Below the pieces are notes generated by a model that was not told the DNA's origin, searched no databases, and saw only the letters and a program-made list of their open reading frames with translations. From Candidatus Parcubacteria bacterium (GTDB lineage Bacteria; Patescibacteriota; Minisyncoccia; UBA6257; 2-01-FULL-56-20): DNA of 44,499 nt. The DNA lies in the NCBI GenBank assembly GCA_027355945.1, contig DAIEHA010000007.1, positions 1 through 44,499 of the forward strand, read 5' to 3'. The position numbers were made by a program, and so were the translations under genes. Positions within the stretch are counted from its first letter, which is position 1. Every line of letters begins with the position of its first letter. Of this stretch, positions 18,484 through 44,499 are shown piece by piece.

Positions 18484-18562
18484 TAAAGGCTGAAGCCTTT
18501 GCTCCCCGTCGCTGCGTTGTGTGCGGAATGCGGCCCCTTCGGGATCCGCAACGAGGCCCGCC

Positions 18563-19531: not shown

Positions 19532-19563
19532 TTATATTAAAATTATATCACACGGAGCGGGGG

Positions 19564-20724: not shown

Positions 20725-20732
20725 ATGGATAA

Positions 20733-23661: not shown

Positions 23662-23714
23662 ATCGGGATTGTTTTATTCATTATATCCCATGTTGTCCCC
23701 AGAAAAAGGCCAGG

Positions 23715-23723
23715 TTATCCACA
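23715..23723 (+). promoter_or_regulatory. perfect DnaA-box 9-mer upstream of the 21811..23661 gene
   Basis: TTATCCACA in the intergenic region; minus-strand TATAAT lies between it and the ATG. Confidence 0.55.
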
Positions 23724-23763
23724 CCTTGTACAAAGTCGCCTCTTTCGGGGCGAATATCCCCTG

Positions 23764-24966: not shown

Positions 24967-24985
24967 GGTTATAGTATAAAACGGT

Positions 24986-26296: not shown

Positions 26297-26306
26297 GATG
26301 ATTCGA

Positions 26307-27788
26307 TTATTTTTTGGCGCCTCCCGAGAAGTTTCCGAGCCATCCGAATGTCCCCTGGAAGTTCTCGAGGATGATATCCACGATGCTCTTCTGCTGCTGC
26401 GGCGTAAGGAGCACGTAGTCCTCCGAGCTCGTCGTGTTCCCATCCACGTCGGTACAGGTCACCCAGTATTTATACACGGTCGCAGGCGTGAATGTCGTGA
26501 TGACGTCCACGTGCTTCACGACGGGGACGGTTTCGAGCGTCGTCGTCACGACGTCCGCGCCGCTCCCGCTCGAATATGAAAGGAAGCACATCGATGGCTC
26601 ATCGGTCGCCCACGAAATGACCGTCTGGACGGTCGTGTCCTGTCCCGGATAGAGCGTGGAGTCGTTGCTCACCTGCGAGATCACCGGAGGATAGATGTTC
26701 TTCGTCGTCACGAAGTAGACGGGGTCGCTCTTCACCGTATCGCCCGCCTGGTTCTGCGCGATGATGACGGCCGAATAGCGCGTCTGGTAGACGAGTCCCG
26801 CGATCTGGAGAATGTGCGTCGTAAGGTACGATGGATCCCCGATCGAGAGCGATTTGTTGTTCGCCATATCGGTATAGACGATCTCACCCGCCGACGGCAT
26901 GGGCGTACCCCAGCTTATCGTGACGTCGTGCTCGCCCACCGTCACGACGTGAGGATTGATGATCTGAGGAAGGACCGATTTGGTCGTGAACGTGAGATCG
27001 GCGCTCTCTCCCGGCGTGCCGATCCCTCCTGCGCGCGAGGATACCATGTAGTGATATTCCGTCGCCGGCGAGAGTCCGTAGACCGTCACCGTGTGCGTCT
27101 TCCCGAGCCCGTTCTGATCCGTTTCCTGCCGCGGATACGGGTTCGCATTCGAGGGATTGTACTCCGCGGCGGAGGCGATGGATACCGTGCCATCCGCGCT
27201 CTGATCGGTGTTCCAGACGACCGTCACATTATCCGTGCCGATGGTGAGCTGAGGGATACCCAGGATGTTCGGCGGCCCGATGCTTGCTTTGGCCTGCTGA
27301 TTCAGGGCTCCCGCGATCGCCTCGAGCGCCTGCGTGCTCGTGATCTGCTGGATGATGGAGAGCGCCTTTGCGGAAAGCTGCTGCTGCTGCGGATTCGTGA
27401 TGTTCGAAAGTTTGGAAAGGTCGATGGTGCTCGAGGTCGTGAACGTATAATCCCCCGAAACGTGCTGGTTGCCGTTCGCATCGGTGGAGCGTATGCGGAA
27501 ATAATACGTCGTCCCCGGATCAAGATTGGGAATGACGACCGAGTGCTGGGTGCCGAGAGGCCCCTGGTTCCTCATCCCGCAATAGTTCGTATCCTGGCTG
27601 AAGTTCACAAAACTGTCGGTGTTGGAATCCGTGGTCCATGTGACCGTGGTCGAGGTGGCGGTCACGCCCGCAACGACCACGTTCGAGATGTTCGGCGAGG
27701 TGTCCGCAAGCGCCCGCACGACGACCGCCGCGGACATGGCCGCGGCACCCATAAGCACCCCTATGGCGAACAGCGAGCGCGCCTTCAT
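26307..27788 (-). CDS. secreted protein with four fibronectin type III-like repeats
   Basis: Signal peptide; repeated V-x-W-x-T...H-x-V...L-x-P-x-T-x-Y pattern (TVTWTTD..HSVVIPNLDPGTTYYF etc.); start ATG 27788. Confidence 0.85.
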   Translation of the reverse strand: MKARSLFAIGVLMGAAAMSAAVVVRALADTSPNISNVVVAGVTATSTTVTWTTDSNTDSFVNFSQDTNYCGMRNQGPLGTQHSVVIPNLDPGTTYYFRIRSTDANGNQHVSGDYTFTTSSTIDLSKLSNITNPQQQQLSAKALSIIQQITSTQALEAIAGALNQQAKASIGPPNILGIPQLTIGTDNVTVVWNTDQSADGTVSIASAAEYNPSNANPYPRQETDQNGLGKTHTVTVYGLSPATEYHYMVSSRAGGIGTPGESADLTFTTKSVLPQIINPHVVTVGEHDVTISWGTPMPSAGEIVYTDMANNKSLSIGDPSYLTTHILQIAGLVYQTRYSAVIIAQNQAGDTVKSDPVYFVTTKNIYPPVISQVSNDSTLYPGQDTTVQTVISWATDEPSMCFLSYSSGSGADVVTTTLETVPVVKHVDVITTFTPATVYKYWVTCTDVDGNTTSSEDYVLLTPQQQKSIVDIILENFQGTFGWLGNFSGGAKK

Positions 27789-27839
27789 GTTGTTATGATA
27801 CCACACGCACGGGCATCGCCCCGTGCCACACCTCCTCGT

Positions 27840-29943: not shown

Positions 29944-31959
29944 TTATTTCACCACAAGATTGAACTGGCAGAAGTTGGGGAGGACCCTCCCGTCCGTTTG
30001 CCGCTCTTTATATATGACGATCACGCCGTATGAGCCCGGTACCGTTGAAGGGGTTATGGTAAGACCGATCGTGTCGATCCCGGACGGCCCTCCGGGGACT
30101 ACGGTCCCGGTCACGCCCGTAGGCAGCGACCCAAGCGAAGCCTGATAGATCGGTGCGACCATGGGCGCCGGGGGCGGGATCGGAGGCGGAGGATACATCG
30201 TTGCCGACGATGCCGTTGCCGACGAGCTTGGCGCAACCGCCGGAGGCGGAGGCTGCGCGACCATCGAAAGGACGTAGGACACGCTCCCTCCGGGATATGC
30301 CTCGTTCGAGAACGGGGTAACGGAACATCGCTGTTCCGCCGAAGGATCGAACACATCCCGGAGCGCGTTCACGGGGGGCGTCGAGGAGGCGGATGCCGCG
30401 GAAGATGAGCTTTGTGAGAACACCGTGCTCGTGGAAGCCGATTGGTCCGTACCCGGAGCTATCGTACCGTTCGGCGCGTCGGCATAATCCACCTCAACCC
30501 CTATCGAATCAAGGTATACCTTCGGGGAATCCGTGGCGTTCAATCCCACAAGCGCCACTTGGAGATGCTGAAGCTCCTGCCATGAATAGATCGGTATGGA
30601 ATACCGCGCCGTCTGCCAATTCCCCGCGTTCACATCCACGACCGGCTGCCACGTGACGCCATCCGTCGAATACATGATGGCGAGAAAATCCCCCGGTGCG
30701 CCAGGCGGAAGCGTGATATTCTGGAACACCGATGTGTTCATTGTGATGGGAGCGGGTGCGGTAGTGGTCGAGGGGATGCCCTCTGTAAGCGAAGAGGTTG
30801 CTGTGGCAGCAGTGTTCGTCGACGATGCGGGCGATGCAGGCGATGCGGGAGCGGGAGCCGCAGCCGCAGAAGACGATGGTGCGCTGTCGTGCGCCGCAAC
30901 AACCGAGGATGCGTTTTCGGCAAACGCGGTCGGAACGATATTGAACAGCCACGACGTTCCAGATGACGATGCTGTCGTAGGTGACGGTGCGGGGGTCGGA
31001 GCGGGGGCGGGGGTTGGGGTTGGGGTTGATGCTGCACTAGATGCGGACGTAGGAGCGGGTGCGGGAGCGGGCGTGGGTGCGGGAGCGGACGTAGGAGTAG
31101 GCGTAGGTGTGGAGCTTGCACTAGATGCGGGCGCGGGCGCCGATGAAACAGTATTCGTATTCGCGGTCGCAGGGGTCGAAATCGGCGCGGGCGCCGATGT
31201 CTTCGTCATGTCGTTGCTCGCGGAAGCTGGAATGGAATTCGGGGAAGAGGTTGCGGTCGAAGCGGGCGCGGACACGCTTCCGGAATCCGTTGTGGATGCT
31301 GATGGCGCGCCTCCCGCCGCCGGAACGGAAACGGAGGATGATGCTATTGCAGCCGTGGACGATGCGAGGATCTTCGAACCTGTCGATGATGAGGCGCTCC
31401 CTTCCGTGGCAGAAGAAGTGGCTGCCTGTCCCGTGATCGCTCCATCCGTCGAGGTTGCTATGGGAACAGCCTCTGCCGATCCCCCTCCGGCCGCAGCGGG
31501 AATCGGCGCAATGGCCGCATACCAGGAAAGGACGAGCGACGCCGCACGGAACTGCTTCGCCTCAAGGTCCGCGATGTTCGTCTGTCCCGAAAAATTCCCG
31601 CAGAACATCTGCGCGTGCCCCGTCGAGAACACCGCCGAATTGAGCGGGGTGAACGCCGCTGCAGGCGCGCCGGGCGGAAGATCGGGCGCACCGAGCGCAT
31701 TCTGGACGTTGTCCCACGAACCAAGGCACGATGAAGGATAGAAATCCGCGGTGCTCGCGAACCCTATCATGAAGGAATATGCGAACCCGCCCGCTGCAAG
31801 CACCCCGCACATCGCAAGGAACCATGCTTTATGCGTTTTGATGAACGCGCGGACGCTCCGCGCGCTTATCTCGAACTGGACGCGATACGTCCGCTCGCGA
31901 AGCATCACCGTCCCTCCCCGGGAACTCTCTCGTATATCCCTTATCTTTTTTCCCTTCAT
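29944..31959 (-). CDS. membrane-anchored protein with long Pro/Ala/Ser/Thr-rich insert
   Basis: N-terminal TM, globular segments flanking about 270 aa of low complexity, C-terminal Ig-like segment. Confidence 0.75.
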   Translation of the reverse strand: MKGKKIRDIRESSRGGTVMLRERTYRVQFEISARSVRAFIKTHKAWFLAMCGVLAAGGFAYSFMIGFASTADFYPSSCLGSWDNVQNALGAPDLPPGAPAAAFTPLNSAVFSTGHAQMFCGNFSGQTNIADLEAKQFRAASLVLSWYAAIAPIPAAAGGGSAEAVPIATSTDGAITGQAATSSATEGSASSSTGSKILASSTAAIASSSVSVPAAGGAPSASTTDSGSVSAPASTATSSPNSIPASASNDMTKTSAPAPISTPATANTNTVSSAPAPASSASSTPTPTPTSAPAPTPAPAPAPTSASSAASTPTPTPAPAPTPAPSPTTASSSGTSWLFNIVPTAFAENASSVVAAHDSAPSSSAAAAPAPASPASPASSTNTAATATSSLTEGIPSTTTAPAPITMNTSVFQNITLPPGAPGDFLAIMYSTDGVTWQPVVDVNAGNWQTARYSIPIYSWQELQHLQVALVGLNATDSPKVYLDSIGVEVDYADAPNGTIAPGTDQSASTSTVFSQSSSSAASASSTPPVNALRDVFDPSAEQRCSVTPFSNEAYPGGSVSYVLSMVAQPPPPAVAPSSSATASSATMYPPPPIPPPAPMVAPIYQASLGSLPTGVTGTVVPGGPSGIDTIGLTITPSTVPGSYGVIVIYKERQTDGRVLPNFCQFNLVVK
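30975..31145 (-). repeat. PT/PA dipeptide-coding degenerate tandem repeats
   Basis: Encodes STPTPTPTSAPAPTPAPAPAPTSASSAASTPTPTPAPAPTPAPSP; tgcactagatgcgg occurs at 31033 and 31117. Confidence 0.75.
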
Positions 31960-33791
31960 CGCTTCGCTTCCCTCTCTTCCTCGCCCTCGTTCAATGCGCG
32001 ATCGACGTCGTCGACCTCCTTCGCGATGGTCGATTCGGAGATGGCAAGCGCATTCCTCATCGCATCGAGCACGTTCTCCGGCTCGAGTTTGATCTCGCCC
32101 TGTGCCGCCGCCGCGCCGCCCTCCATGTGGTTGATCTGGTCATCCACCTCCTCGCGCAACGCCTCGAATACCGCCTTCGTCTTCTGGCGCACATCCTCAT
32201 TCTCCCTCTTCGCGAGCGAGATGTGAATATCGTTTATCTTCTTCCGATAGAACCCGTACGTCACAAGTCCGCCGATGAACGAAAGAAGCAGGACGATGAT
32301 GATCCATCCGAACCGGTCGAGGAACGGTGCCGCAAGGACGTTCATCGGCGCGCCCGCGGTCGTGCTCGCAAACGCGCCCTGCGTCGTGACCATCGACGCG
32401 ACAAGCGTGTATCTCCCTCCAGGAAGACCGCCTTCCACCGCATAGAGCCAATGCCCCGTCGCATCCGCCACCATCTTCCCCTCGGACACCGTCTTTCCGG
32501 TCGAGTCATCGATATCGAGTGTCACGTTTGCGCCGCTATCCGCAACGCCTTCGATCACGATCGGGGACTGTTCGATCACCGTCGCCGGGAAATTCGTGAT
32601 CTCCGGACTTCCGATCCCTGAAATCTGGAATTGGCCGTCGGCCTCCGTGCTGTTGCCGGCCTTGTCTATCGCGAAGATGGCGACCGTATGCTTGCCCGGC
32701 AGGAGCGGCGGAGCGGTGTAGACCCCATTCTGCATATCCGAAAGCGCGATCGTCGACGACGCCCCTCCATCGAAGATCACCTCATAATGGTCCACCCCCG
32801 AAACCGTATCCGTCGCATTGAACGCGATCGTCGTCCTTCCTGAGATTCCCGCGCCCGGTGCGATCGTGAGCGTGAACGGCAGCGGGGACGTAAGGTCGAT
32901 CTGCACCGGCATGGCCATGGGATCACTCCAATCCCCCAGCGCATCCTCGAAGCGCACATGGAAATACCACACTCCTTCCCCGATGTTGGAATATTGCTTG
33001 CTTGAAATGAGGCCCTCGGACACCCTCTTGGGATACGTGTTGGGATTCCTATCGAACGCCGTGCTCACCCCCGCGACGTCGGGCGTCAGCTTCCATGAGA
33101 AGGATGGGTTCGGATTGCTGTACCACTTGGTGGGATCGGGATGCGTCGGCGAAGTGATCGTCACCGCAGGCGTGAACGACGAGGGGGTGCTCACGGGCTG
33201 GGCCGCCTGTCCCGACGATCCGCCTCCTTGGCTTGCCGCCGCAGCCTGACTCGCGGATGAGGGGGCAGGTGCGGGAGCGGCGGCACTGATGGTGAATGTG
33301 GCGCCCGTCGTTCCTCCGAGAGCGCTCGTCCCCTGGCCATCCGCCGCAAGCGCATCCGCGGACGCGAATTGGAGCGATGCGCTTCCCGCCTTCAATGCTT
33401 TGAATGTGACATCGAACACGTCGCCGGCATCGCCGGTGTACGCGTTGTTGCTCCCTCCGCTGAAATTCACGGTGCCATCCGTATTCGAGAACGAGGGATC
33501 GTTCACCCAAAGGTTGAACACCGAATTTCCCTTTGAGATGCTCTCGGCGGCCAGCATCGTGGGATCGAATGTGATCTTGCCGTCGGCGGCGTTCACTCCC
33601 ACGCCTCCTCCGCTCGCAAGCATGACGCTCACCGTGAATGTCTGGCCCACGGAATACGAACCGCTTGCCGGAGAAATGGATAATGAAGCCCCTCCCGCGG
33701 CCTTCGTATGCGGGGACGGGAGGATGAATGCCGCAACGAGGAACGCAGCGGCGACAATGCTACTTCCCAGCCTGATCCTTTGATGGTTCAT
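31956..33791 (-). CDS. cohesin-domain protein with Ig-like stalk, TM anchor and cytoplasmic coiled-coil tail (cohesin 1)
   Basis: SLSISPASGSYSVGQTFTVSV..VNAADGKITFDP..SVFNLWV..NFSGG; SPTHPDPTKWY; GVDHYEV; TM WIIIVLLLSFIGG; start ATG 33791. Confidence 0.85.
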   Translation of the reverse strand: MNHQRIRLGSSIVAAAFLVAAFILPSPHTKAAGGASLSISPASGSYSVGQTFTVSVMLASGGGVGVNAADGKITFDPTMLAAESISKGNSVFNLWVNDPSFSNTDGTVNFSGGSNNAYTGDAGDVFDVTFKALKAGSASLQFASADALAADGQGTSALGGTTGATFTISAAAPAPAPSSASQAAAASQGGGSSGQAAQPVSTPSSFTPAVTITSPTHPDPTKWYSNPNPSFSWKLTPDVAGVSTAFDRNPNTYPKRVSEGLISSKQYSNIGEGVWYFHVRFEDALGDWSDPMAMPVQIDLTSPLPFTLTIAPGAGISGRTTIAFNATDTVSGVDHYEVIFDGGASSTIALSDMQNGVYTAPPLLPGKHTVAIFAIDKAGNSTEADGQFQISGIGSPEITNFPATVIEQSPIVIEGVADSGANVTLDIDDSTGKTVSEGKMVADATGHWLYAVEGGLPGGRYTLVASMVTTQGAFASTTAGAPMNVLAAPFLDRFGWIIIVLLLSFIGGLVTYGFYRKKINDIHISLAKRENEDVRQKTKAVFEALREEVDDQINHMEGGAAAAQGEIKLEPENVLDAMRNALAISESTIAKEVDDVDRALNEGEEEREAKR

Positions 33792-34362
33792 CCGGAATTT
33801 CTTTAACCGAAAGCCTCTTCCCCTCTCCGGGGTGCTTCGCGGGCAATACGATGCGGAGCACTCCCCGCTCAAGGGACGCTTCCGCCTCCCCGCTATCGAA
33901 CGGTGCGGGAAGATAGACCTTCCTGTACCATTTCTTCCATTTCGTCTCCTGTTTCACATACCGCCCCTTCTCATCCCGATCGCCATCCTTCGCACCGGGA
34001 AGCGGAGGCGGCGCAGGACGCTGCTGTTCCGCTCGGATCGTGAGGGTGTTCGCTTCTTCGCTCATCACTATTTCGAGGCCGTCCTTCGCGACACCGGGCA
34101 ATTGCGCCACTACCACCATCCTTTCATCCGACTGGAAAAGGTCTATGTCGAGGGGTTCCGTCCCATCAGGAGGAAGATCGCTTCCTTGGTCCACTGCAAT
34201 GGATACCGGAGGTTCCCCGGGCCGTTGCGGCTGGTCCACGCGCTCTCCTGTGGCTTTGAAGGATGCCGTCCTCGAAGACGCGGACGGCGCCGGCGCGGCG
34301 GGTACCGCATCGGGATTGACTTCGTTCAGTTTGCTTTCGAGCTTCTGGTAGAACGAGAGCAT
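33760..34362 (-). CDS. Hsp20/alpha-crystallin family small heat-shock protein
   Basis: PLDIDLFQ..VVVAQLPGV..LTIRAE..YRKVYLP..ASLERGVLRIVLP; start ATG 34362. Confidence 0.88.
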   Translation of the reverse strand: MLSFYQKLESKLNEVNPDAVPAAPAPSASSRTASFKATGERVDQPQRPGEPPVSIAVDQGSDLPPDGTEPLDIDLFQSDERMVVVAQLPGVAKDGLEIVMSEEANTLTIRAEQQRPAPPPLPGAKDGDRDEKGRYVKQETKWKKWYRKVYLPAPFDSGEAEASLERGVLRIVLPAKHPGEGKRLSVKEIPDEPSKDQAGK

Positions 34363-34399
34363 ATTATATCTAAGTATACCACACCTCTTCGCCGCTCCC

Positions 34400-36088
34400 T
34401 CATCCTGTCCAGTTGTACAGCATGATACTGAGATCGGGGAGATCAACGACGCCATCGCCGTTCAGGTCTCCCGGGGACCATGCCTCTCCCCAATGGAAGA
34501 GGAGTATGGAAAAATCCACGAGATTCACCTTCCCATCGCCGTTCAGGTCTCCTTTTCCTCTGGGTTTCGGCACCGTGCCCACACCAAGATAGGATATGCT
34601 CGAAAAAGGGCTCTGCGTGTAGGCGGGAAGGAACGCCCTCGCTTTGATCTGATAGGTATCGGCCGGGAATCCTCCCGTTGAAAGACCGTAAGACCACGCT
34701 CCCGTCGCATTCGCGGTCGTGGTCGCCGTCACGGGAGCCTGTGCGCCGCTCTGGCTCGTCACCACGATTTCCACGGTCGAGGATGGTTCGGCGACGCCCG
34801 CGATCGTCGCGGTCCCTCCGATACCCACCGTGCTCGTGGCAAATGAAAGTCCCGGGGGGAGCAGGATGTTCGTGATCTGGTTCGTCGTCCCCGAAATGAG
34901 CGTGATCGTCGTCGTATACGAGGCGATCGCGGTCCCACCCGTACCGTTCTCAAGGAGCGTGAATGAATATGTCCCTTCCGGCATCGGCGGGATGGTGACG
35001 GAGAAATTCCCCGCGCTGTCCGCGATGGTGGAAGCGCTCGGCAGCAGAACGCCGTCCTCGAGCACCGAGATACTGACGTTCGGCAGCGCGATGCCCGAGA
35101 TGGCGAGCGCCGGCTCCGCCGGCCCTGCAGGATATGGCGCACCGCCGCCTCCGCCGCCTCCGCCTCCGCCCGAATAGGATTGGCCCGACGTCCCGCCGCC
35201 CAACCCGGTACCCGTCGGATCGCCCGCAATGAAAGAGATGACGTAATCGCTCGTATCGGTGTTCCCCGTAAAATCCATGCAGCGCGCATAGAGCGTATAC
35301 GTGGTCCCCTTGGTGATGCCGGTGATCGTCGTATATTGGAACGTCCCCGTATAGTCGCTCGAAAACGTCCCCGTCATCGCGCTATAGCTCACCCCCGAGG
35401 ATGTCGCATACCGACACGTGGAATACGTATCCGCATTGAACGATACGACGACCCCGAGAACGTTCGAGGGGATCGTGCCCGTCGGCAGCGCATTGGAGAG
35501 GACCGGCGGCGTGGTCCGATACTGGTTCACGTCGACACCGACCGCGGGAAGGATCGCGACCATCGCCGAACCGTAATCGATCGCGGTCCCCGAAGCGGCA
35601 TTCGTATCGATAAAGATGCGATAGGACGCCGTCGATGATGGATTGGTTATCTCATATCCTCCCGGTATGCCCAAGATCATTTTCACATATGCCCCCGGAG
35701 GAACGGAGGCTCCCGACGGCATGGCAACCGTGATCGGTCCCGTCCCCGGAACGATGGAGACCCCCGCATCCGAAATTCCCGCGGAAGGCCCCACCGCCCA
35801 CGGCACGAATCCGCCGGTCGGTGAAGACGTGGAGACCGCGAACGAAACATCCGTGTAATTGAAGGAGGGGTCCAATAAGAATGCATCGTTCTCGAACGAA
35901 ATGACCGCGGAGCCCGATGCGGGGATCCCTCCGGGGACGCCGAACACGATCGTGTGGGTCGTCGGCCATGAGGGCCGCGAATCCCCGATCGTATCGCTCA
36001 CATGGGACATGACCGCGGCATGCGCGAACTGCGGGATCGCGGACGCGCATATCCATATCGCCGCCAAAAGCAACAGATATCGTTTCAC
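34400..36088 (-). CDS. secreted dockerin-domain protein whose N-terminal domain is shared with the 37689..38822 subunit
   Basis: Signal peptide (FAHA); C-terminal DLNGDGKVNLVDF / DLNGDGVVDLPDL; poly-Gly linker; two Ig-like domains. Confidence 0.85.
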   Translation of the reverse strand: MKRYLLLLAAIWICASAIPQFAHAAVMSHVSDTIGDSRPSWPTTHTIVFGVPGGIPASGSAVISFENDAFLLDPSFNYTDVSFAVSTSSPTGGFVPWAVGPSAGISDAGVSIVPGTGPITVAMPSGASVPPGAYVKMILGIPGGYEITNPSSTASYRIFIDTNAASGTAIDYGSAMVAILPAVGVDVNQYRTTPPVLSNALPTGTIPSNVLGVVVSFNADTYSTCRYATSSGVSYSAMTGTFSSDYTGTFQYTTITGITKGTTYTLYARCMDFTGNTDTSDYVISFIAGDPTGTGLGGGTSGQSYSGGGGGGGGGGAPYPAGPAEPALAISGIALPNVSISVLEDGVLLPSASTIADSAGNFSVTIPPMPEGTYSFTLLENGTGGTAIASYTTTITLISGTTNQITNILLPPGLSFATSTVGIGGTATIAGVAEPSSTVEIVVTSQSGAQAPVTATTTANATGAWSYGLSTGGFPADTYQIKARAFLPAYTQSPFSSISYLGVGTVPKPRGKGDLNGDGKVNLVDFSILLFHWGEAWSPGDLNGDGVVDLPDLSIMLYNWTG

Positions 36089-36100
36089 CCTTTTATGGTA

Positions 36101-36544
36101 TCACGCCGCGGTCGGCGTTTCCTTCCCTTGTCCCATCCCCCTCTCCATGCGTTCGCGCCGTGCCCCGAGGTGGAAACTGAGTCCGACAAAAAACGCAGCG
36201 ATCCCCACCGCCACCATGAGATACCAGGGCACCGCCGAAGACGATGCGGGAGATCCCTTCGCCGCTTGGGATGCAAGCGCAGCCTTCTGGGACGCAAGGT
36301 CCGCAGCCTCCATGTCGAGCTGGGTCTTTTCCTGGCTCAATTGCGCGTTCAAAGTATTATACGGATTCGGCGCAACACCCACGACCACGCCCACCTGCGC
36401 AAGCATGCTCTTCGCCGGCGCAAATCCTCCCGGCGTTCTTGCGATGAAAAAGGTGCTTCCCACGACGACCGTTACGGCCGCCGCCATGAGTATCGTTCCT
36501 ATCCTTGCGTGTGGCATGCGCATGCCGGAAGCAGGACTATCCAA
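36101..36544 (-). CDS. small membrane protein with two TM segments and a short coiled coil
   Basis: Hydrophobic N- and C-terminal segments flanking NPYNTLNAQLSQEKTQLDMEAADL; start uncertain. Confidence 0.7.
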   Translation of the reverse strand: MDSPASGMRMPHARIGTILMAAAVTVVVGSTFFIARTPGGFAPAKSMLAQVGVVVGVAPNPYNTLNAQLSQEKTQLDMEAADLASQKAALASQAAKGSPASSSAVPWYLMVAVGIAAFFVGLSFHLGARRERMERGMGQGKETPTAA

Positions 36545-37640
36545 AGAAGAAGAACAGGATCATCAGGAATATGATCGCGAAGACCACCGTCGCCACGAGG
36601 ATGAAGACAAGGCGGGAGAACGGAAGCCTTCCTTCAGCGAGGAGTCGCTCCTCGGCGGAGATGGATGCTGCATTGCCCTGGCGGCCCCCGGTCATGGCCG
36701 CGATCCGCCTCCTCACATACGCCCTCACGCCCCAGATGAATCCGAAGACGATAAGCACGAGGATGATGAGAAGTGCGAGTATCGGCACGATCGGGATGAT
36801 CCAGAAGGAGGTCTCCTGGGACACCGTCTTCTGGGCGTTATCCCCGTAGGTAAGGGACATCACCGCATCGAACCTCCCCATCATGAACCCTCCGCTCGTC
36901 CAATTCACCGTGAATGTCCGGTCCTGTCCCGGAAAGATCGCGTCATTCGAATCATTCATGATGACCGTCCCCACCTTCTGTCCGAACATGTTCGTGATAT
37001 CGATCGGGCCGCGCGGGCGGAGCAGGACATTCCCGGTATCGGCCGCATCTGCCGCAAACGTCACGTTCGCATCCTGATAAAGACCCTTGTCCGTGGAGAA
37101 AGAACGTATCTCTGCCGTCTCATTCGCCTGTCCCGCGATCCTGAAATCGAGGAGCGAACCCACCTCATACCCGATGCCGGTCCCCGTAAACTGAGGGCGC
37201 GTGGCGCCATAGGTCACGAAAATCGCCCCATAATGGCCGCCGGGGGCGGCGGTCGAGGGGACGTTCACGGTGAACGGTACGATGACGGCCCCGCCTGCGG
37301 GGATGGTGATCACCGGACTCTGGATGCTCACCCAGGAAGTGATGCCGTATTCGGGCACCGAGGAGCTGCTGAACACCGGTTCGCCACCGCTGTTGAGGCC
37401 CGAGATGTCCTTCACGCTCACCGTGTAGGTCCGCGATACGGGATCCGGATTCGTGACGGTGATCGATGTCGAAAACTTATCGCCGGGATTCACGATCTGC
37501 TGGAAGATCGCGGGCTGCACCTTCACCCCTGTCGCATTGGCTCCCGGGGTTCCCGGAGCGGACTGCGCGAATGCGATCCCTCCAATAAGAGTCGCGACGG
37601 CTGCACCGGCAAGGACCGCTCCCCACGCCTTTTTCTTCAT
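36537..37640 (-). CDS. DUF916/WxL-interacting-like membrane-anchored protein
   Basis: VKVQPAI..VNPGD..ITVTN, ITSWVSI..IPAG..VPFTVNVPSTAAPGGHYGAI, DTGNVLLRPRG; two C-terminal TM helices. Confidence 0.8.
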   Translation of the reverse strand: MKKKAWGAVLAGAAVATLIGGIAFAQSAPGTPGANATGVKVQPAIFQQIVNPGDKFSTSITVTNPDPVSRTYTVSVKDISGLNSGGEPVFSSSSVPEYGITSWVSIQSPVITIPAGGAVIVPFTVNVPSTAAPGGHYGAIFVTYGATRPQFTGTGIGYEVGSLLDFRIAGQANETAEIRSFSTDKGLYQDANVTFAADAADTGNVLLRPRGPIDITNMFGQKVGTVIMNDSNDAIFPGQDRTFTVNWTSGGFMMGRFDAVMSLTYGDNAQKTVSQETSFWIIPIVPILALLIILVLIVFGFIWGVRAYVRRRIAAMTGGRQGNAASISAEERLLAEGRLPFSRLVFILVATVVFAIIFLMILFFFFG

Positions 37641-37688
37641 TACATGCATCGTATCATGCGCCGCCGCACCCTTTCAAGCCTTGAGGGC

Positions 37689-38822
37689 TTAGAAGGTCGG
37701 GGTTGCGACGTAGATGAGGTTGTTCGTGTAGTCGTTCGCGGCAGGCTGCAATGTACCGATCTCGATCCGATAGGCCACCTTCGCGGTTCCCACGTTCTGC
37801 GTCGTTCCGTCCGCAGGACCGTTCCATGCGAACACGGTGAGCGTGGAGGTGGGATTGATGCTGCCGGCATAGAGCGGCGTGGACGTACCGAAGCTTGGCG
37901 CACCGACGATCGAACTGCTCACATCGTCGCTCGTGACGCCGAGATGGCCGTAGGTCGCAGGCTGATTGATGACGTTGCTCGGCGCGGCCCACGGACTCGG
38001 CGTGGATGTCGCATTGCCGTTATCGAAAAGATGGATGGTGTTCCCCGTCTGGCTCGTAAGGTCCTGGTCCTCGTGGACGGTCACCGCAAAGCCGTTTGCG
38101 GCGTTCGTCGTCACATACAGCTGCTGACCGAGCTCGGCGTGGGTGTTCGGTGAGATCACGCCGAATGGGACCGTGGTCGAGGTGGATGCGCCCGTCGTCG
38201 TTGCGCCGTTTCCAAGCGTCGTGGAGGTCGCAAGCCCCGCCACCGTAAAGGTGAAGGTCGTAGCAACCGCCGCCGTCACATTGACGCCATTCACGATCGC
38301 GACGCGGGTTGCCGCGGAATTCGTGCCTGCCGCGACGTTTATCACATAGGACCCGGTGCTCGTCGGGTTCGTGATCGTATTATTCAAAACTTTGAGGGTG
38401 ACCGTTCCCGCGGGGATCGTTGCGCCGCCGCATACGGTGAATACAAGGGAGTTCGTGGTGGTCGCCACGCTGACATTGTTACCTCCGTTGTTACAGGTAT
38501 ATCCGGTGATGGTCATCCCGGTCGAAGTCACATCTGCAAGCACGACGCCGCCTACGTTGCCGAATGCGCTCGTGTTGGGATCGAAGGTATACGTGATCGT
38601 CTGCCCCGTCAACGTGCTCGTCGAATCAGTGAATACTATCGTATGATTCGCTGCAAACCCCGGGCGGGAATCGGACAATGTGTCGCTCACTGAAGTAAGG
38701 CTCACTGCGTGGGCGGTGTTCACAAATCGAAGCATCGTGCTCCACGAAACAAGACTTACGATCAGACCTGCTGCGACCGCGATTGCGACATCGCGATTTG
38801 TCATCGTCCTTTTACTAAACAT
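37689..38822 (-). CDS. secreted two-domain WxL/pilin-like protein (class A), candidate major subunit
   Basis: Signal peptide (TAHA), Thr-rich beta domains, VPFGVI..VTTNAANGFAVTV..., C-terminus DYTNNLIYVATPTF; own promoter. Confidence 0.75.
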   Translation of the reverse strand: MFSKRTMTNRDVAIAVAAGLIVSLVSWSTMLRFVNTAHAVSLTSVSDTLSDSRPGFAANHTIVFTDSTSTLTGQTITYTFDPNTSAFGNVGGVVLADVTSTGMTITGYTCNNGGNNVSVATTTNSLVFTVCGGATIPAGTVTLKVLNNTITNPTSTGSYVINVAAGTNSAATRVAIVNGVNVTAAVATTFTFTVAGLATSTTLGNGATTTGASTSTTVPFGVISPNTHAELGQQLYVTTNAANGFAVTVHEDQDLTSQTGNTIHLFDNGNATSTPSPWAAPSNVINQPATYGHLGVTSDDVSSSIVGAPSFGTSTPLYAGSINPTSTLTVFAWNGPADGTTQNVGTAKVAYRIEIGTLQPAANDYTNNLIYVATPTF

Positions 38823-38952: not shown

Positions 38953-40062
38953 TCACTTCTTTCGAAGGTCGACTGTCCCCTTCGGATCGCTTCGCGGAAC
39001 CTGCGGACGAGGAGGTTCGTGCGGCGCACTCGGTCCCGAAGAACCATATCTTCCCATCTCGCGTTCGAGCATCTTCTTCACGTATCGACGGAGCAATATC
39101 ACAAACCCTCCTATGACAAGAAGTGCGATCACGCCGTCCTCCGCGAGCATTCCGAGCGGCAGGACCCAGAATGTGAGGGTCTGGGACACGCTCTTCGTCC
39201 CATCGACGCCATAGGCAAGGGTCACTATTGCGGTAAAACGCCCGATATCCCATAGATTTCCTGGGCCCTGCCATTCTTCGCTGAACTTACGGCTGCTCGA
39301 TGGCAGCACGTATCCGAACGTCTCCTCTTGGTTCACCGGGACCGTTCCCTCCTCCTTTCCGAACGCATTATAGATCTGGATCTCCCCCACCGGACGCACA
39401 TGGACGTTGCCGGTGTTCGCGAACACCAGATTGAAATTCACATCCGGCCGCTGATAGAATCCTTTGTCCGTGGAAAATTCCTGGATGTTCCCGGATTCCT
39501 TTATATCCCCCGATACGGTGACGAATATGAGCGCCGAGATGAAGCTCGATATGCCGATATGCGACCCCGACGCGGGAGACCCCTCCGGCGATTGAGTCCC
39601 GATCAGGATACCGGCGTAATGTCCTCCCGGGGATGCGTCTTTCGGGATGTTGATCGAAAAAGGGACGTCAGCCGCGCTTCCCGGCGGCACCACCGCGGTG
39701 GACGATCCGAGTGTTATCCAGTTCGCCAAGGCGTCGGGATCTCCCGCAATCTCCGAAAGATTCTTGAAGGTGCCATGACCCTCCTGATCTGAGGGCGCAA
39801 ATCCCATCACGGTCGCCACCACGGGAAGCGGCGCCGCATTGGTGTTCACCACGCGGATCGAACTCGCCCATGCGTCCCCCGGCGATGCGTTCAACGTAAA
39901 GAACGGGGGGGTGATGGTGAGCGATGTCGCATCGGCCGACTGGGCCGCCGCACGGGGAAGGAAGCACGGCGCACCTGCCGCAAGCGCGACGAGGATGAGC
40001 ACCGCACCTGCCGCAGCGCGGCGCGCATTCGCAAACGTCATTGTGTGCGTAGCATCATTCAT
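38953..40062 (-). CDS. DUF916/WxL-interacting-like membrane-anchored protein
   Basis: LTITPPF..ASPGD..IRVVN, LANWITL..VPPG..VPFSINIPKDASPGGHYAGI, NTGNVHVRPVG; C-terminal TM. Confidence 0.8.
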   Translation of the reverse strand: MNDATHTMTFANARRAAAGAVLILVALAAGAPCFLPRAAAQSADATSLTITPPFFTLNASPGDAWASSIRVVNTNAAPLPVVATVMGFAPSDQEGHGTFKNLSEIAGDPDALANWITLGSSTAVVPPGSAADVPFSINIPKDASPGGHYAGILIGTQSPEGSPASGSHIGISSFISALIFVTVSGDIKESGNIQEFSTDKGFYQRPDVNFNLVFANTGNVHVRPVGEIQIYNAFGKEEGTVPVNQEETFGYVLPSSSRKFSEEWQGPGNLWDIGRFTAIVTLAYGVDGTKSVSQTLTFWVLPLGMLAEDGVIALLVIGGFVILLRRYVKKMLEREMGRYGSSGPSAPHEPPRPQVPRSDPKGTVDLRKK

Positions 40063-41059
40063 GATGGTGGGGGTGCTTCAGGTCTATCACCTGCTTGTTC
40101 TTCAGAAGATGCTCGATGAGTTGGCGCCTGCGATGATGCCGCTTCGCATATCCTCGATGCATGAACACGGCGGCCGCGATCACAAGAATGAGCAATATGA
40201 TGAAGATCACGAACAGCTCCTTCCATGGAAGGATCCAGAAGAGCGCCGTATCCGCGAGCTGGGCGTTCTGCGCTCCATAGGTTGCTTCCAATCCTACCTT
40301 ATATTCCCCCATGCTGCCGCCCGCACCATTCCATGTGGCGGTGAACTGCTTGGTGGTTCCCGGCGCGATGGAATCGCCGCCTGGATTCACGGACACCGAC
40401 CCGAGCTCGTGGCCGATGCGATCATAGAAGATCACGTCCCCTCCCGGATCCGATGGGATGTCGCCCGTGTTCTTGATGGCGTAATCGACCGTCATCGGGA
40501 ATCCCGATGATATTCTTTTTTCCGGACCGAAACTCACAAGCTGAAGTTCCTCTTTGAGATCGGAGATGACCGTGAAGTTCACGAGTGCCTGAGGGGCGCC
40601 ATTAAGATTCTTCTCCGCCTCGTCCCTCGTCCCTCCCTCCACAAAGGCAACCACGGCATGATAATCCCCCGCCGTCGCATACGGATTGATCGTCACGTTC
40701 ATGGGAATGGTCTTGGTCTCTCCGGGAGCGAAGATCATCGCCCCGCGAGAGATCCCGATCCAGTCGGCAAGGAGCTCCGGCCTGTTGGAACTCGCCGGAT
40801 CTATGAAGGGTTGCGTTCCGCTCGCGGTAAGTTCGTATACCGATGCAAAGATGTTGAGCTGCCTGCCGCTCGTGTTCGTGACCGTGAGGGTGTAGTTGAA
40901 CATGTCATCCGGGATCCCGTTCCCATCGATCACCGCGGGTGCGACCGTAAGATCCGCGGCATGCGCAACGCGCGTGGCGAATGCGCCCGCCGCAGCGGAA
41001 AACGCCGCGATGGCGACGATGAGCAGGAGCAGGTGTTTCATATTCTTCTTCATTGTCAT
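40055..41059 (-). CDS. DUF916/WxL-interacting-like membrane-anchored protein
   Basis: LTVAPAV..LTVTN, LADWIGI..APGETK..ATAGDYHAVV, NTGDIPSDPGG; C-terminal TM plus basic/His tail. Confidence 0.78.
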   Translation of the reverse strand: MTMKKNMKHLLLLIVAIAAFSAAAGAFATRVAHAADLTVAPAVIDGNGIPDDMFNYTLTVTNTSGRQLNIFASVYELTASGTQPFIDPASSNRPELLADWIGISRGAMIFAPGETKTIPMNVTINPYATAGDYHAVVAFVEGGTRDEAEKNLNGAPQALVNFTVISDLKEELQLVSFGPEKRISSGFPMTVDYAIKNTGDIPSDPGGDVIFYDRIGHELGSVSVNPGGDSIAPGTTKQFTATWNGAGGSMGEYKVGLEATYGAQNAQLADTALFWILPWKELFVIFIILLILVIAAAVFMHRGYAKRHHRRRQLIEHLLKNKQVIDLKHPHHHE

Positions 41060-41066
41060 GGCGTCA

Positions 41067-44000
41067 TCAGAAGACGGGGGTTGCGATATAGATCACGTTA
41101 TCGTTGTAGTTCCCGTTCACCTGCGTCAGTCCCGCTTGAACGCGGTATACGACATTGATCGTGCTCGTGGCGGGTCCGCTCGAATATCCTATCTCCGCCG
41201 GCGTGGACGTGAGCGCGGCATATGAATCGTCCGCGGCGAACCGCGTCGATCCTCCCGAGAGCACCGGACTTCCCGGATGATACCCGTAGCAGGCCGTTGA
41301 GGTCGCGGTGCACGCCGATGACCATGGCAGCGGACTTCCGTTCGTGGCATCCACGCCCGGCAGGATATAGCCGCGTCCGTTCATGAGCGGCGCATCCTGG
41401 AACGCGTACAGTTCGAACCCGTTGGGCGCATCGGTCGAGATGAGAAGCTGCTGCGCCGCCATGGAGCTTGTGGCGATCGTGAGCGTTCCAAACGAGATCC
41501 CCGCCGGTGTGGATGATGCGGTCGTTACGACGCCGTCGGTCGAAGTCCCTTGCGGCATGCCGCTCACCGTAAAGGTGAGGAGCGCCCCTTCCACCGCAAG
41601 ACTTGGATACGATGAGGTGCTGTAAAGTGCCACGGGTGCTCCGGTGCCGTTGTTCACAAGGCGGAAGAAATAGGTCGCGTTCGTCGTCGCACCGTCCCCG
41701 ACGATGGTGAACTCGTACTCGGTGATGGCGCTCGCCTGCTGCGCAAAGGTCGAGGAGCTTATTCCCGATGTGTTGTGCGTACCGCATCCCGGTCCCACGC
41801 CGCTCGCGCATGCATTCGAGTCTGAAAGCACCGCGGTCGAGATCACTGCATTATCCGTACCCCCCGTCGATGTGGCATAGCACCATTGCGACGCAGAGGT
41901 GCAACTCCCCGTCTCCGCGACATACCCCACCCCTGAGGAAAAATTGCTATACGTGGAATATTGAAGTCTGAACTTCACATCGCTCCCCGAAACATTGTTC
42001 GCCTCCGCTACCGCCACGCGAAGCTTGATGATGCTCCCGTTCTGCGCGGTCGAGGGCGCGACATTCTCCCCCGCGAGCGGGTTCACCGGCGTCTCATCGT
42101 TCGCGTCGCCGTAAAATCTCCAGTTCGCCGATTCCGGGTTGAACGGCGCCGTCGTCACGGCAGGATAATATACGTATGAATCGAGTGGCGTCCCGCTGCT
42201 CTTCACCATGCGGAAGCAATACGATGCCGAGGAGCTCGTGCTGTTGTATTGGAGCGCCCAATCATATTCGATGTTGTCCCCGATAAGCGAACGATAGGGG
42301 TTCGCCGCGGATGGATTGGCATCCGTATACACACCGTCGCGCGTGGATACGGAGAGCAGGAGCGTGGTGAGCGGCGTACCGTTCGCCACGCCCGCATTCG
42401 CATATCCGGTCCATGGCCCCGCGCCGCCGATCGCGCCCACGTCGCTCCATGATGCGACCGCGCTGCACGACGTCGTCATCACCCCGTACTGCAGCTTGAA
42501 TGCCTGCGTTGATGTCGGGAGCACCGCGCCGCCGAGCGTCACCGCCATGCGAAGACGCAGCACGCTTCCGTTCGTCGGAGGAGAATCCGCGGCCGTGATC
42601 GCCATATTCTCCCCGAGCGTCGACGTGCCCGCGGGCCACGCCGCGGTCGGCGTGAGCGCGTTCGCATTCGTATACCACCGGTAATAGTTCTCTGCGAACG
42701 TGGAGCTCGCGGCGATCACGCTTATCTGAGGATAGACAGTATACGTACCGATCGACGCCCCGTTGTTCGTCGCTTGAAAGTAATATGTCTGCCCGAAGGA
42801 AGCGCCCTCCGTCGCCTGGATGTTCCATTCGAGCTCCGTGAATTGATTCGTGTTGAGCGTGATCACCGGCGCAGGGGTCGTGCTTTCCAGCATGAAGCCG
42901 CTCACGAATGCCGCTGCCGCCGGAGTGAGAAGATTGTGGGTCGGATCAAGATCTGCGAAATATCCCGATGGACATTCGCGGAACGCCGCGGCGATCGTAG
43001 AACAGGTGGGGTCGACGGGCACGGGGGTCCACGGCCCCGCCGTGGAGGTCGCATATTCCAGACGGAACGCCGCGCTTGCCGCAACATTCCCGTTATTGGA
43101 AAATTCCATGCGCAGCCGCACGCTCGTGTCCTCTGTCGTGCTCGTCGGGGTCGTTTCCGCGGCGCGCCATGTCGCCGAGGGAACCGTGTCCACCTCGGGG
43201 TAGTTCACGTAGCCGTCAAGTGAGGCCCCTGCGCCGGTCATCATGCGGAAACAATATGCCGCACCGGAGGATGCATCGTTGTCCTGCACGACGAAATCCC
43301 ATTCGCCCGCCCCGTTCGCGGGAATGGGGTTCGGGTTCGTCGGCGAGGGATTCTGCTCCACGTACGATTCGGGGACGGTGGAGCTCGCGAGGAGCGTTGC
43401 GGCGAGCGTCGTACCGTTCGTCGTGCCCGCATTGCTGTAGCCGCGCCACGGCACGGACGATCCTGATGCTCCGACATCCGCAAAATTCGCCGATGGCACT
43501 CCGCTGCACGATGCCGCGGTTCCTTTGGGTGCATATTGCAGCTTGAACGATTGCGTGGAACTCGGGAATGCCGCGCCGCCCACCGCGATATTCATCACGA
43601 TCCTCACCGCCCCTCCCGAGACGGTTCCTGTCGCCGCAACGTCCGGCGCGGCGAGCGAGGATGTTGGTTGGACCGCGTCGGCATTTTTGTATATCTGGAA
43701 ATCCTGCTGAGTGAGCGTGGCCGAGGGCATTGCGGTGAACCCCCCAAGCCCCACCCCCGTCGCAGGTCCCACGGTGCCCGCCGCAACCGTGACGTTCGCC
43801 GAGGGATTCGCGATCGTAAGCTCGAAGGTCTGGCCTCCGGGAGAGGAGGATGCGATATCCACTTTTGCATAGATGCAGACGTTCGCGGTACCCACGGGCA
43901 TGGTGCCCGTCACGGTCGCTTGTTCCGATGCATTGAATGAGCCTCCTGTTGCGTTGAAGAGGGTCGCTCCCGCAGGGATGCTCGAGGTGGCGCAGGTGGT

Positions 44001-44498
44001 CGACGCCTGATAATAGAGGGCGAGGTTCCCGAGGTATGCGTTCGCGTTCAGGGTGCCCGAGGCGGTCACTGCGATCTGCGTGACGTTCGTGGAACCGGAA
44101 TCCCTCGCCATCGTGAATGCGCCGCCGGTGTAGAAGCCGGCTGCGGGGACGGTCGTCGTCGCGAACTGGGATCCCGTCGCTCCCACCGCGACCGAGGCGG
44201 GGGCATAGGTGATGACGATGATGCCCTGGGTGCCTGCGGCGCCGGCGCCCGCGACGCACCCGGCATTCGCGCATCCTCCTCCGCCGCCTCCACCCGCACC
44301 CCGTACACCCGCAACGCCGCCGCCCGCACCCGCATTCGTTTTGAAATTCGCACCTCCTCCTCCGCCGCCTCCTCCACCGGACCCGTATGTGGTCCACTCT
44401 GTGCCGGCTGTTCCGGTGCTGCCCACGACAGTGGTACGGCCGCCGGTCCCTCCTCCTCCGCCTGCACCGCCAAAAGTACCATCGCCCTGCCCGCCCGT
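41067..44498 (-). CDS. large adhesin-like surface protein, 5' partial: Gly-rich domain, four about 160-190-aa repeats, class A WxL/pilin-like C-terminus
   Basis: Frame stays open to the window edge (TGGQGDGTFGGAGGGGG...); C-terminus GNYNDNVIYIATPVF paralogous to the 37689..38822 product. Confidence 0.85.
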   Translation of the reverse strand, partial: TGGQGDGTFGGAGGGGGTGGRTTVVGSTGTAGTEWTTYGSGGGGGGGGGANFKTNAGAGGGVAGVRGAGGGGGGGCANAGCVAGAGAAGTQGIIVITYAPASVAVGATGSQFATTTVPAAGFYTGGAFTMARDSGSTNVTQIAVTASGTLNANAYLGNLALYYQASTTCATSSIPAGATLFNATGGSFNASEQATVTGTMPVGTANVCIYAKVDIASSSPGGQTFELTIANPSANVTVAAGTVGPATGVGLGGFTAMPSATLTQQDFQIYKNADAVQPTSSLAAPDVAATGTVSGGAVRIVMNIAVGGAAFPSSTQSFKLQYAPKGTAASCSGVPSANFADVGASGSSVPWRGYSNAGTTNGTTLAATLLASSTVPESYVEQNPSPTNPNPIPANGAGEWDFVVQDNDASSGAAYCFRMMTGAGASLDGYVNYPEVDTVPSATWRAAETTPTSTTEDTSVRLRMEFSNNGNVAASAAFRLEYATSTAGPWTPVPVDPTCSTIAAAFRECPSGYFADLDPTHNLLTPAAAAFVSGFMLESTTPAPVITLNTNQFTELEWNIQATEGASFGQTYYFQATNNGASIGTYTVYPQISVIAASSTFAENYYRWYTNANALTPTAAWPAGTSTLGENMAITAADSPPTNGSVLRLRMAVTLGGAVLPTSTQAFKLQYGVMTTSCSAVASWSDVGAIGGAGPWTGYANAGVANGTPLTTLLLSVSTRDGVYTDANPSAANPYRSLIGDNIEYDWALQYNSTSSSASYCFRMVKSSGTPLDSYVYYPAVTTAPFNPESANWRFYGDANDETPVNPLAGENVAPSTAQNGSIIKLRVAVAEANNVSGSDVKFRLQYSTYSNFSSGVGYVAETGSCTSASQWCYATSTGGTDNAVISTAVLSDSNACASGVGPGCGTHNTSGISSSTFAQQASAITEYEFTIVGDGATTNATYFFRLVNNGTGAPVALYSTSSYPSLAVEGALLTFTVSGMPQGTSTDGVVTTASSTPAGISFGTLTIATSSMAAQQLLISTDAPNGFELYAFQDAPLMNGRGYILPGVDATNGSPLPWSSACTATSTACYGYHPGSPVLSGGSTRFAADDSYAALTSTPAEIGYSSGPATSTINVVYRVQAGLTQVNGNYNDNVIYIATPVF

Positions 44499-44499
44499 G

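Follow-up and report, generated by a model that had tools for sequence, protein, structure and literature searches.

A row of genes for secreted and membrane proteins on the minus strand of a contig from Candidatus Parcubacteria bacterium (GenBank assembly GCA_027355945.1, contig DAIEHA010000007.1) was analysed, with the focus on two of them, which encode a dockerin protein of 562 amino acids (aa) and a 377-aa protein that begin with the same domain and end differently. The window is the whole contig (C25; 44.5 kilobases, kb), the genome to which it belongs comprises 735 kb in 27 contigs and is 91.8% complete, and the row of genes occupies 27.8-44.5 kb of the window. On balance, we lean towards a model of a surface assembly that is built head to tail, non-covalently and with the help of chaperones, in which the dockerin protein forms the base next to the cell, a large protein the tip, the 377-aa protein the shaft and a membrane cohesin the socket. 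The original prediction had placed the dockerin protein as the joint between a polymer of the 377-aa protein and the membrane cohesin, and this idea gained from synteny, from complex prediction and from the distribution of domains. The part that changed is the contact itself, which is predicted to join the shared N-terminal domain to the C-terminal domain of the 377-aa protein (class A) and not one shared domain to another.

Patescibacteria, or the Candidate Phyla Radiation (CPR), account for a large share of bacterial diversity and live attached to other cells. To our knowledge, their surface structures are almost wholly without assigned genes.

The shared N-terminal domain and its predicted contact

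The proteins on which the model turns, and the domains within two of them, are as follows:

37689..38822, minus strand: 377-aa subunit, candidate shaft; signal peptide ending AHA, shared N-domain, class A C-domain
38277-38705, minus strand: shared N-domain of the 377-aa subunit (residues ~40-182)
37689-38276, minus strand: class A C-domain of the 377-aa subunit (residues ~183-377)
34400..36088, minus strand: dockerin protein, 562 aa, candidate base or anchor subunit; GTG start, signal peptide, shared N-domain, immunoglobulin (Ig) domains, dockerin
35519-36016, minus strand: shared N-domain of the dockerin protein (residues ~25-190)
34403-34582, minus strand: dockerin domain of the dockerin protein (residues ~503-562; Pfam)
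41067..44499, minus strand: large surface protein, >1143 aa, with its 5' end beyond the window; payload repeats and a C-terminal class A domain
31956..33872, minus strand: cohesin-bearing membrane protein (638 aa, counted from the TTG listed); Pfam matches to Cohesin (42.6 bits against 24.1) and to Big_13

That the 34400 and 37689 products share an N-terminal domain was confirmed: the peptide strings originally quoted for it are present in both minus-strand open reading frames (ORFs), and the similarity is significant in alignment. BLASTP of the two proteins (a single comparison, with composition adjustment) gave 54 identities in 190 columns (28%, E 4e-10), the aligned stretch being 5-185 in the dockerin protein and 20-182 in the 377-aa protein. 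When the profiles of 41 homologues of the latter (alignment A1) and 29 homologues of the dockerin protein (A2) were compared, the probability was 99.5% and the E value 3.3e-22 over 153 aligned columns, and it is virtually certain that this domain of ~150 residues is real. The different C-termini were likewise borne out, the 377-aa protein leading into class A and the 562-aa protein into Ig-like domains and a Pfam dockerin. The public gene call of the dockerin protein (P0121, 536 aa) begins at Met27 and so is without a signal peptide; the GTG start at 36088 restores one that ends in AHA, as in the 377-aa protein, and it is kept in a homologue of 85% identity (L015).

In the genome-wide set of 4341 ORFs, each of at least 80 aa, the domain was found in only three: the two window proteins and, on contig C11, a paralogue of the 377-aa protein. 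This stand-alone copy (C11:31040-32143, plus strand) has 45% identity in the N-domain and 65% in class A, and is surrounded by housekeeping genes; chaperone and dockerin genes are absent from its vicinity. Across related sequences, a hidden Markov model (HMM) of the shared domain was positive in 45/45 pilin-type and 44/44 dockerin-type ORFs already classed as carriers by BLAST, and also in 17/22 and 7/9 divergent or truncated ORFs that BLAST had missed, the rest being cut ORFs. The 377-aa protein itself has 921 homologues at E<=1e-3, all of them unnamed or 'hypothetical' in records of Paceibacterota and Minisyncoccia, and the family is strongly conserved, many homologues having 65-77% identity. 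More generally, the nearest homologues of the studied proteins came from records of Candidatus Paceibacterota, Minisyncoccia, and Kaiser-, Lloyd-, Adler- and Nomurabacteria, that is, from CPR/Patescibacteria.

The best-conserved part of the domain in both families is L-T-x-V-S-D-T-L-S-D-S-x-P ... N-H-T-I-x-F, directly after the signal peptide, and the last strands are likewise among the most conserved. A search of 1.84 billion representatives found the domain in 1737 clusters at E<=1e-3, and architectures were counted in the best 150 of these. The first copy begins within 60 residues of the N-terminus in 149 of the 150; 103 also carry a dockerin, 8 carry class A, and 34 carry neither, many of the last being fragments. 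Three have two tandem copies and two are giant proteins with 9 or 10. The giants, P0155 (3077 aa) and P0303 (2725 aa), hold 10 or 9 tandem N-domains, and P0172, P0268 and P0161 (378-533 aa) have two copies with neither class A nor dockerin.

The N-domain had no Pfam family match and no PDB sequence match. Its best solved structural matches were BslA (4bhu; Z 10.9, root-mean-square deviation (rmsd) 2.9, 115 aligned) and YweA and YcnI (Z 10.7-10.8), at 11-16% identity, and it showed a weaker likeness to Gram-positive pilin domains and cohesins (Z 7-9). The likeness to BslA, YweA and YcnI is one of fold only; the mature N-terminus is not His, the residue that forms the copper site of the YcnI type. 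A cohesin-like reading of the domain was considered and is unsupported, as cohesins scored Z 7.1-7.8, no better than the pilin and adhesin Ig domains in the background.

The class A domain of the 377-aa protein aligned with the last ~170 residues of the 41067 product at 30% over 199 columns (E 3e-11), and the latter protein, which has no Pfam family match, scored 217.7 bits against the class A profile. An AlphaFold2 (AF2) model of the 377-aa protein (predicted local distance difference test (pLDDT) 89.5, predicted template modelling score (pTM) 0.61) consisted of two beta-sandwich domains. The fold searches used this whole model, and the result lists were dominated by the N-domain; the structural matches of class A were the N-terminal domain of plant hexosaminidase (Z 9.0-9.2) and the TLP-1a/b fibril protomers (Z 8.8 and 8.6, middling values, with 142-143 aligned and 11-12% identity). 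A Foldseek match to two-domain MSCRAMM adhesins (E 3e-7) was set aside: with a TM score of 0.2 and an rmsd of 25-28 Å, it was taken to reflect generic tandem Ig domains. The class A profile was found in 120/401 sampled genomes of the phylum, a tally that includes one genome (G154) flagged as unpublished.

For complex prediction, the 377-aa protein (residues 40-377) was paired with the dockerin protein (residues 25-200), and each chain had its own alignment. In this pair, the N-domain of the 34400 product is predicted to contact the 37689 subunit, with a score of 0.81 (runs 0.83, 0.80 and 0.81) against 0.00 for the best of three controls. A mark of 0.81 was reached by 58/80 solved complexes and 2/110 mismatched pairs, counts that give only a rough guide because our own alignments were used. 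The runs agreed in at least 99% of contacts, and the pLDDT of the partner was at least 89. All contact residues of the 377-aa protein lie in class A (within 188-377), at 188-194, 215-223, 359-377 and scattered other positions, and none in its own N-domain; those of the dockerin protein are residues 27-38 (the N-terminal motif) and 173-190 (the last strand and the strand trailing it). Residues 31-38 of the dockerin protein run antiparallel along the C-terminal strand of class A (370-376), and residue 184 touches 217 and 368, so that the strand lies between two class A segments. Sequence searches of the PDB with A1, A4 (an alignment of 57 diverse class A sequences), A5 and one CPR WxL protein gave 0 matches at E<=10 each, and as no solved chain matched A1 or A4, it is unlikely that the pair passed from sequence memory. 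A strand at residues 190-196 (TFTFTV) was also considered as donor and was ruled out, as this strand is present in cis in the large tip candidate too.

The predicted interface is better conserved than the rest of each domain, in class A (A4: 0.68 against 0.49 elsewhere, p 2e-8), in the 377-aa family (A1: 0.82 against 0.68, p 4e-5) and in the N-domain of the dockerin family (A2: 0.72 against 0.66, p 0.043), with the caveat that buried strands are conserved for folding too. The N-domains of the two window proteins are identical at 13/33 interface positions and at 27/140 others (Fisher p 0.015), as expected if both dock on the same acceptor. Judged from the complex model, the dockerin protein probably binds class A of the 377-aa protein.

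Gene neighbourhood, chaperone candidates and proposed anchoring

Eighty loci were gathered with the dockerin family, and 66 of them hold a dockerin gene of this type; as the loci were selected by that gene, it is the neighbouring genes that form the test. The genes recur in this order: large class A protein, chaperone C, chaperone B, pilin type, chaperone A, in places a small transmembrane protein, then dockerin protein, Hsp20 and cohesin membrane protein. A pilin-type and a chaperone-type gene lie upstream in 42/46 loci with at least 4 kb of upstream flank. Among the 49 loci with at least 3.5 kb of downstream flank, 34 have a gene for a cohesin-type membrane protein downstream and 32 an Hsp20 gene. 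Both sets of neighbours are present in 27/36 loci with both flanks. This is a conserved surface locus of Patescibacteria, and very probably one that specifies a surface assembly associated with WxLIP-type chaperones.

The other members of the row in the window are:

40055..41059, minus strand: chaperone-like paralogue C, 334 aa, with a signal peptide, two beta domains and a membrane helix at the C-terminus
38953..40062, minus strand: chaperone-like paralogue B, 369 aa; Pfam WxLIP_PGBD E 0.015, under the cut-off; hydrophobic helix 300-318
36537..37649, minus strand: chaperone-like paralogue A, 370 aa; WxLIP (DUF916/DUF3324)-like membrane protein
36101..36544, minus strand: small protein, 147 aa, with two hydrophobic helices (hydrophobic 19-mers 15-33 and 104-122)
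33760..34455, minus strand: Hsp20/alpha-crystallin protein; Pfam HSP20 40.9 bits

The three paralogues (334-370 aa; 40055, 38953 and 36537) have the same layout, in which a signal peptide is followed by two beta domains and a hydrophobic helix at the C-terminus, and they are homologous to WxLIP, which is the DUF916/DUF3324 protein encoded in WxL loci. The family PF06030 (WxLIP_PGBD) matched 34/43 family members at E<=0.01 (best 8.4e-9). The window copies score under the Pfam cut-off, paralogue A with E 1.3e-3 (19.2 against 27.3 bits) and paralogue B as listed; in the search of the genome, where B reached E 1.2e-3, there were only two PF06030 matches, both in the locus. PF11797 (DUF3324) was not detected. 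Paralogue C (hydrophobic 19-mers at 9-27 and 271-289) aligns in the family alignment A3, with 24% identity to paralogue A, and in related loci its orthologues are found beside the large class A protein. In paralogue A, the usual membrane helix is followed by a second hydrophobic helix at the extreme C-terminus (residues 341-369), and B and C show one C-terminal hydrophobic helix only.

The AF2 model of the 36537 product (pLDDT 86.9) had as its top Foldseek matches 9i25_C and 9i1y, the WxLIP of Enterococcus faecium (E 4.8e-13), followed by chaperones of chaperone-usher pili, namely CfaA, YadV, FimC, Caf1M, CsuC and PapD (E 2e-10 to 5e-8), and also EcpB. In VIA it matched 9i1y_A with Z 16.7 (rmsd 6.5, 232 aligned), and the next entry had Z 12.7. 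The chaperone of an Elr-type system, named after the Elr pilus of Enterococcus faecalis, is a DUF916 (PF06030) plus DUF3324 (PF11797) protein with a C-terminal membrane helix, encoded no more than 10 kb from the pilin gene; here such a protein is recognised by its fold and partly by its sequence, and the chaperone-like genes are adjacent to the gene of the 377-aa subunit. These WxLIP-like proteins presumably act as chaperones.

The dockerin of the 562-aa protein scored 30.3 bits against Pfam Dockerin_1 (cut-off 22.9), or 35.1 bits with in-frame neighbours, and has a duplicated calcium-loop segment with two DLNGDG repeats, conserved in 29 homologues. Between the N-domain and the dockerin lie a Big_13-like Ig domain, a Gly-rich linker and two more Ig-like domains, the Ig spacer and linker together measuring ~300 residues. 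The 31956 product consists of an N-terminal signal or hydrophobic segment, the cohesin domain, Ig-like spacers, a helix and a charged tail of ~100 aa (hydrophobic 19-mers at 33-51 and 512-530), and from its sequence it is the candidate socket for the dockerin. No sortase (PF04203) was found in the 91.8%-complete genome and no C-terminal signal of the LPxTG type in the proteins of the locus, so the anchor used by Elr is not on hand; a non-covalent socket would replace it.

Further observations concern the surroundings of these genes. The Hsp20 protein (33760), which is without a signal peptide, is encoded between the dockerin and cohesin genes and might meet the charged cytoplasmic tail of ~100 residues of the cohesin protein. 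The 147-aa protein (36101) had no family match; a predicted coiled stretch separates its two helices, and it is detectable by BLAST between chaperone A and the dockerin gene in 16 related loci. A second cohesin-dockerin module lies at 17797-21737 (minus strand) of the window and encodes four proteins, one each with a CopC domain (20733), a dockerin (19564; 439 aa), a cohesin (18563; 322 aa) and a lamin-tail domain (17797); related loci, e.g., L072, L079, L086, L090 and L094, repeat the order CopC, dockerin, cohesin, cohesin. The third dockerin gene of the genome is on contig C22 (38358-38498). At 21811-29897 (minus strand) of the window, the large secreted proteins 27840 and 21811 have repeat modules in common with the N-terminal region of the 41067 product, and the same downstream block encodes an fn3/purple-acid-phosphatase-N protein (26307) and a MacB-type ATP-binding cassette pair (24986 and 23764); the block follows the locus in the closest relatives, L015-L019. 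A scan for promoters and terminators gave counts no higher than in shuffled sequence.

Proposed assembly and its alternatives

Class A occurs by itself in the large protein, together with the shared domain in the 377-aa protein, and the shared domain is combined with a dockerin in the 562-aa protein, the pattern that would be expected for tip, shaft and base of a head-to-tail assembly, by analogy with the Elr pilus. In the proposed mechanism, the acceptor would be the class A C-terminal domain of the 41067 and 377-aa proteins, and the donor would be the shared N-domain of the 377-aa and dockerin proteins, acting through the conserved strand at its mature N-terminus (L-T-x-V-S-D-T-L-S-D-S-x-P) and the one trailing the domain. 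The large protein would accept only, and would therefore be the tip; a distal, acceptor-only position is suggested for it by analogy with ElrA. The 377-aa protein would both accept and donate, as a shaft or linker that presumably polymerises, and the dockerin protein would donate only, as the chain end, or base. Through its C-terminal dockerin it would plug the chain onto the cohesin of the 31956 product, which would hold that cohesin out from the membrane on its Ig spacers, and the three WxLIP-like membrane proteins would retain the acceptor domains up to hand-over, as ElrE does for WxL pilins.

Several points weigh against this assembly. The complex score of 0.81 is a model confidence and not a measurement, and since the N-domain of chain 1 (the 377-aa protein) is a homologue of the partner, the prediction may copy an intramolecular contact. 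Class A begins, in both the large and the 377-aa protein, with a strand TFTV-x-G in cis, which the AF2 monomer folds into the domain at a pLDDT of ~96; the acceptor may then be a complete fold and not an open groove. Some proteins contain the shared domain in 2, 9 or 10 tandem copies, which suggests a self-sufficient module and not only a donor. The genome holds three dockerin and two cohesin genes, so the pairing of dockerin with cohesin is not settled, and 15/49 loci have no cohesin gene within the available downstream flank. Finally, a relation of class A to the WxL domain was sought repeatedly without result: 0/71 class A domains matched Pfam WxL at E<=1, there was no WxL chain among the 50 best structural matches of the whole 377-aa model, profile-profile comparison of class A with 13 Pfam-positive CPR WxL proteins gave E 0.033 and a probability of 1.5%, and HMM searches of class A and WxL in both directions found nothing below E 0.02.

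Class A was not filed as a WxL domain, given that the Pfam, profile-profile and HMM searches all failed. Pfam WxL (PF13731) had no match in the genome at E<=10, and a Pfam scan found none among the 41 homologues of the 377-aa protein. In the hhalign comparison (E 0.03) only the C-terminal motif aligned, and in a low-stringency alignment the sites of the Trp-x-Leu motifs read G-F-A-V and I-Y-V-A in class A. A feature search of the ESM Atlas placed WxL clusters at ranks 2 and 3 of the named neighbours (score 0.86), no more than a lead towards a distant relationship. Elsewhere in the phylum, Pfam WxL matched 30/401 genomes at E<=0.01, 10 of them above the cut-off, and several of these WxL genes adjoin PF06030 genes that pass it, which suggests that canonical and divergent versions of WxL/WxLIP both occur in Patescibacteria. 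Pairs of WxL and PF06030 genes were seen at L001:1039-3221, L003:565-2049, L006:76-3009 and L007:67-2998; in L001 and L003 both partners are above the Pfam cut-offs.

In one alternative, the shared N-domain would be a functional head, such as a BslA-like surface-active or YcnI-like metal-binding domain, carried on two different anchors, a wall-binding class A and a dockerin, with no contact between the two proteins. The best solved matches of the domain are indeed BslA, YweA and YcnI, tandem arrays of 2, 9 or 10 copies are what a free-standing module might form, and WxL domains were first described as wall-binding anchors (PMC10599100). However, a Z near 11 for a small beta sandwich speaks for fold only, the complex prediction passes (0.81 against 0.00), and the most conserved parts of the domain, its N-terminal strand and last strands, form the predicted contact. 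The genes are also neighbours of WxLIP-like chaperones in 42/46 loci, and the domain stands directly behind the signal peptide in 149 of the best 150 clusters. We consider separate heads on separate anchors unlikely.

It is similarly improbable that the contact is real and yet builds no long fibre, the 377-aa protein being either a single-copy linker that joins the large protein to the dockerin base, or the unit of a two-dimensional surface layer that the dockerin protein tethers to the membrane. The family is very conserved and has the stand-alone copy amid the housekeeping genes of C11, both of which might be seen in an abundant envelope protein, and the class A fold seems complete in cis. 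On the other hand, the neighbouring genes encode homologues of pilus-type chaperones, an architecture of donor plus acceptor permits chains of any length, and the best matches of class A include the donor-strand fibrils TLP-1a/b (Z 8.8 and 8.6), though these Z values are middling. Chance or compositional likeness of two Thr/Ser-rich beta proteins, conceivable in that both are rich in Ser, Thr, Gly and Ala, is refuted by the composition-adjusted BLASTP (E 4e-10), the profile-profile E value of 3.3e-22 and the restriction of the domain HMM to 3/4341 ORFs.

The head-to-tail assembly with the dockerin protein at its base can be extended, more tentatively, to CPR of the Paceibacteria type as a whole. 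These may possess a WxLIP-chaperone pilus that uses a whole Ig-like domain as donor and a dockerin-cohesin joint to a membrane protein, and it would be a main attachment organelle of these episymbionts, if true, given the class A profile in 120/401 genomes of the phylum. Such a structure would be the first pilus with a cohesin-dockerin anchor and, outside Bacillota, the first chaperone pathway of its kind, extending the chaperone-guided donor-exchange pathway of Enterococcus to a distant phylum. It would also provide a gene-level parts list (tip, shaft, base, chaperones and socket) for a widespread CPR appendage, represent a new sortase-free way to fasten a fibre to a cell, and account for the frequency of cohesin and dockerin genes in organisms that do not break down cellulose. 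With the predicted contact to go by, the model can be tested directly on two small recombinant domains.

Comparison with known systems

Searches of the literature on dockerin together with cohesin in Parcubacteria, on dockerin in the CPR and on WxL in Patescibacteria showed no such system, judged by title and start of abstract of the papers listed. The words Patescibacteria and dockerin are absent from the preprint on the E. faecalis Elr pilus (10.64898/2026.10.17.759780), the closest parallel. According to that preprint, WxL pilins polymerise via N-terminal donor-strand exchange; ElrA, a large WxL protein, is proposed from AlphaFold modelling as the acceptor-only tip; ElrB, a small donor-only LPxTG protein, is proposed as the end of the fibre, with sortase-dependent retention on the wall; and the system is reported as confined to Bacillota (10.64898/2026.10.17.759780). 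The locus described here resembles it in having a membrane-anchored two-domain chaperone of the DUF916/WxLIP kind beside the subunit genes, a large protein with a putative C-terminal acceptor domain, a small putative donor-plus-acceptor subunit and a putative donor-only protein that bears the anchor, and in a predicted donor element that is oriented antiparallel to the acceptor's C-terminal strand.

There are also clear differences. Class A, the putative acceptor, falls outside Pfam WxL, the chaperone candidates form a set of three paralogues, the host belongs to Patescibacteria, and the putative anchor is a dockerin with a membrane cohesin in place of LPxTG and sortase. The Elr donor is a free N-terminal strand of ~15 residues with the pattern S/T-x-G/A-x-V/I-x-F, which does not occur here; the predicted donor is instead a whole Ig-like domain of ~150 residues with its N-terminal and trailing strands. 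The mature N-terminus, V-S-L-T-S-V-S-D-T-L-S-D-S-R-P, is part of the folded domain in the AF2 model, yet takes part in the predicted intermolecular contact.

Compared with the WxLIP of E. faecium (9i1y, 9i25), the chaperone candidate shares the fold across both beta domains and the C-terminal membrane helix, and differs in the extra C-terminal hydrophobic helix of the 36537 product and in an identity of only 14-17%. The chaperone fold and the logic of tip, shaft and terminator recall the chaperone-usher pili of Proteobacteria, but there is no outer membrane here, the chaperone candidates are membrane-tethered, and they gave no Pfam match to PapD_N at E<=0.1 in any of the three proteins. The outer-membrane usher is a feature of those pili, and none was noted here, although no search aimed at an usher was made. 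TLP-1a/b freshwater fibrils, in which TLP-1 polymerises by an N-terminal donor strand (PMC11494351), are similar in that class A aligns with the TLP-1 protomer; as differences, TLP-1 is closest to a Flavobacteriales protein (PMC11494351), and it is without the N-domain.

The dockerin with its two calcium-loop repeats, and the cohesin on a membrane-anchored neighbour, are as in scaffoldins of the cellulosome type, with the differences that no glycoside hydrolases are attached, that the cargo would be the base of a fibre and that the membrane protein has a single cohesin. The WxLIP chaperone, the head-to-tail logic of donor and acceptor, and the cohesin-dockerin pair are each known from other systems; what differs is their combination, the use of a whole domain as donor, and the host phylum.

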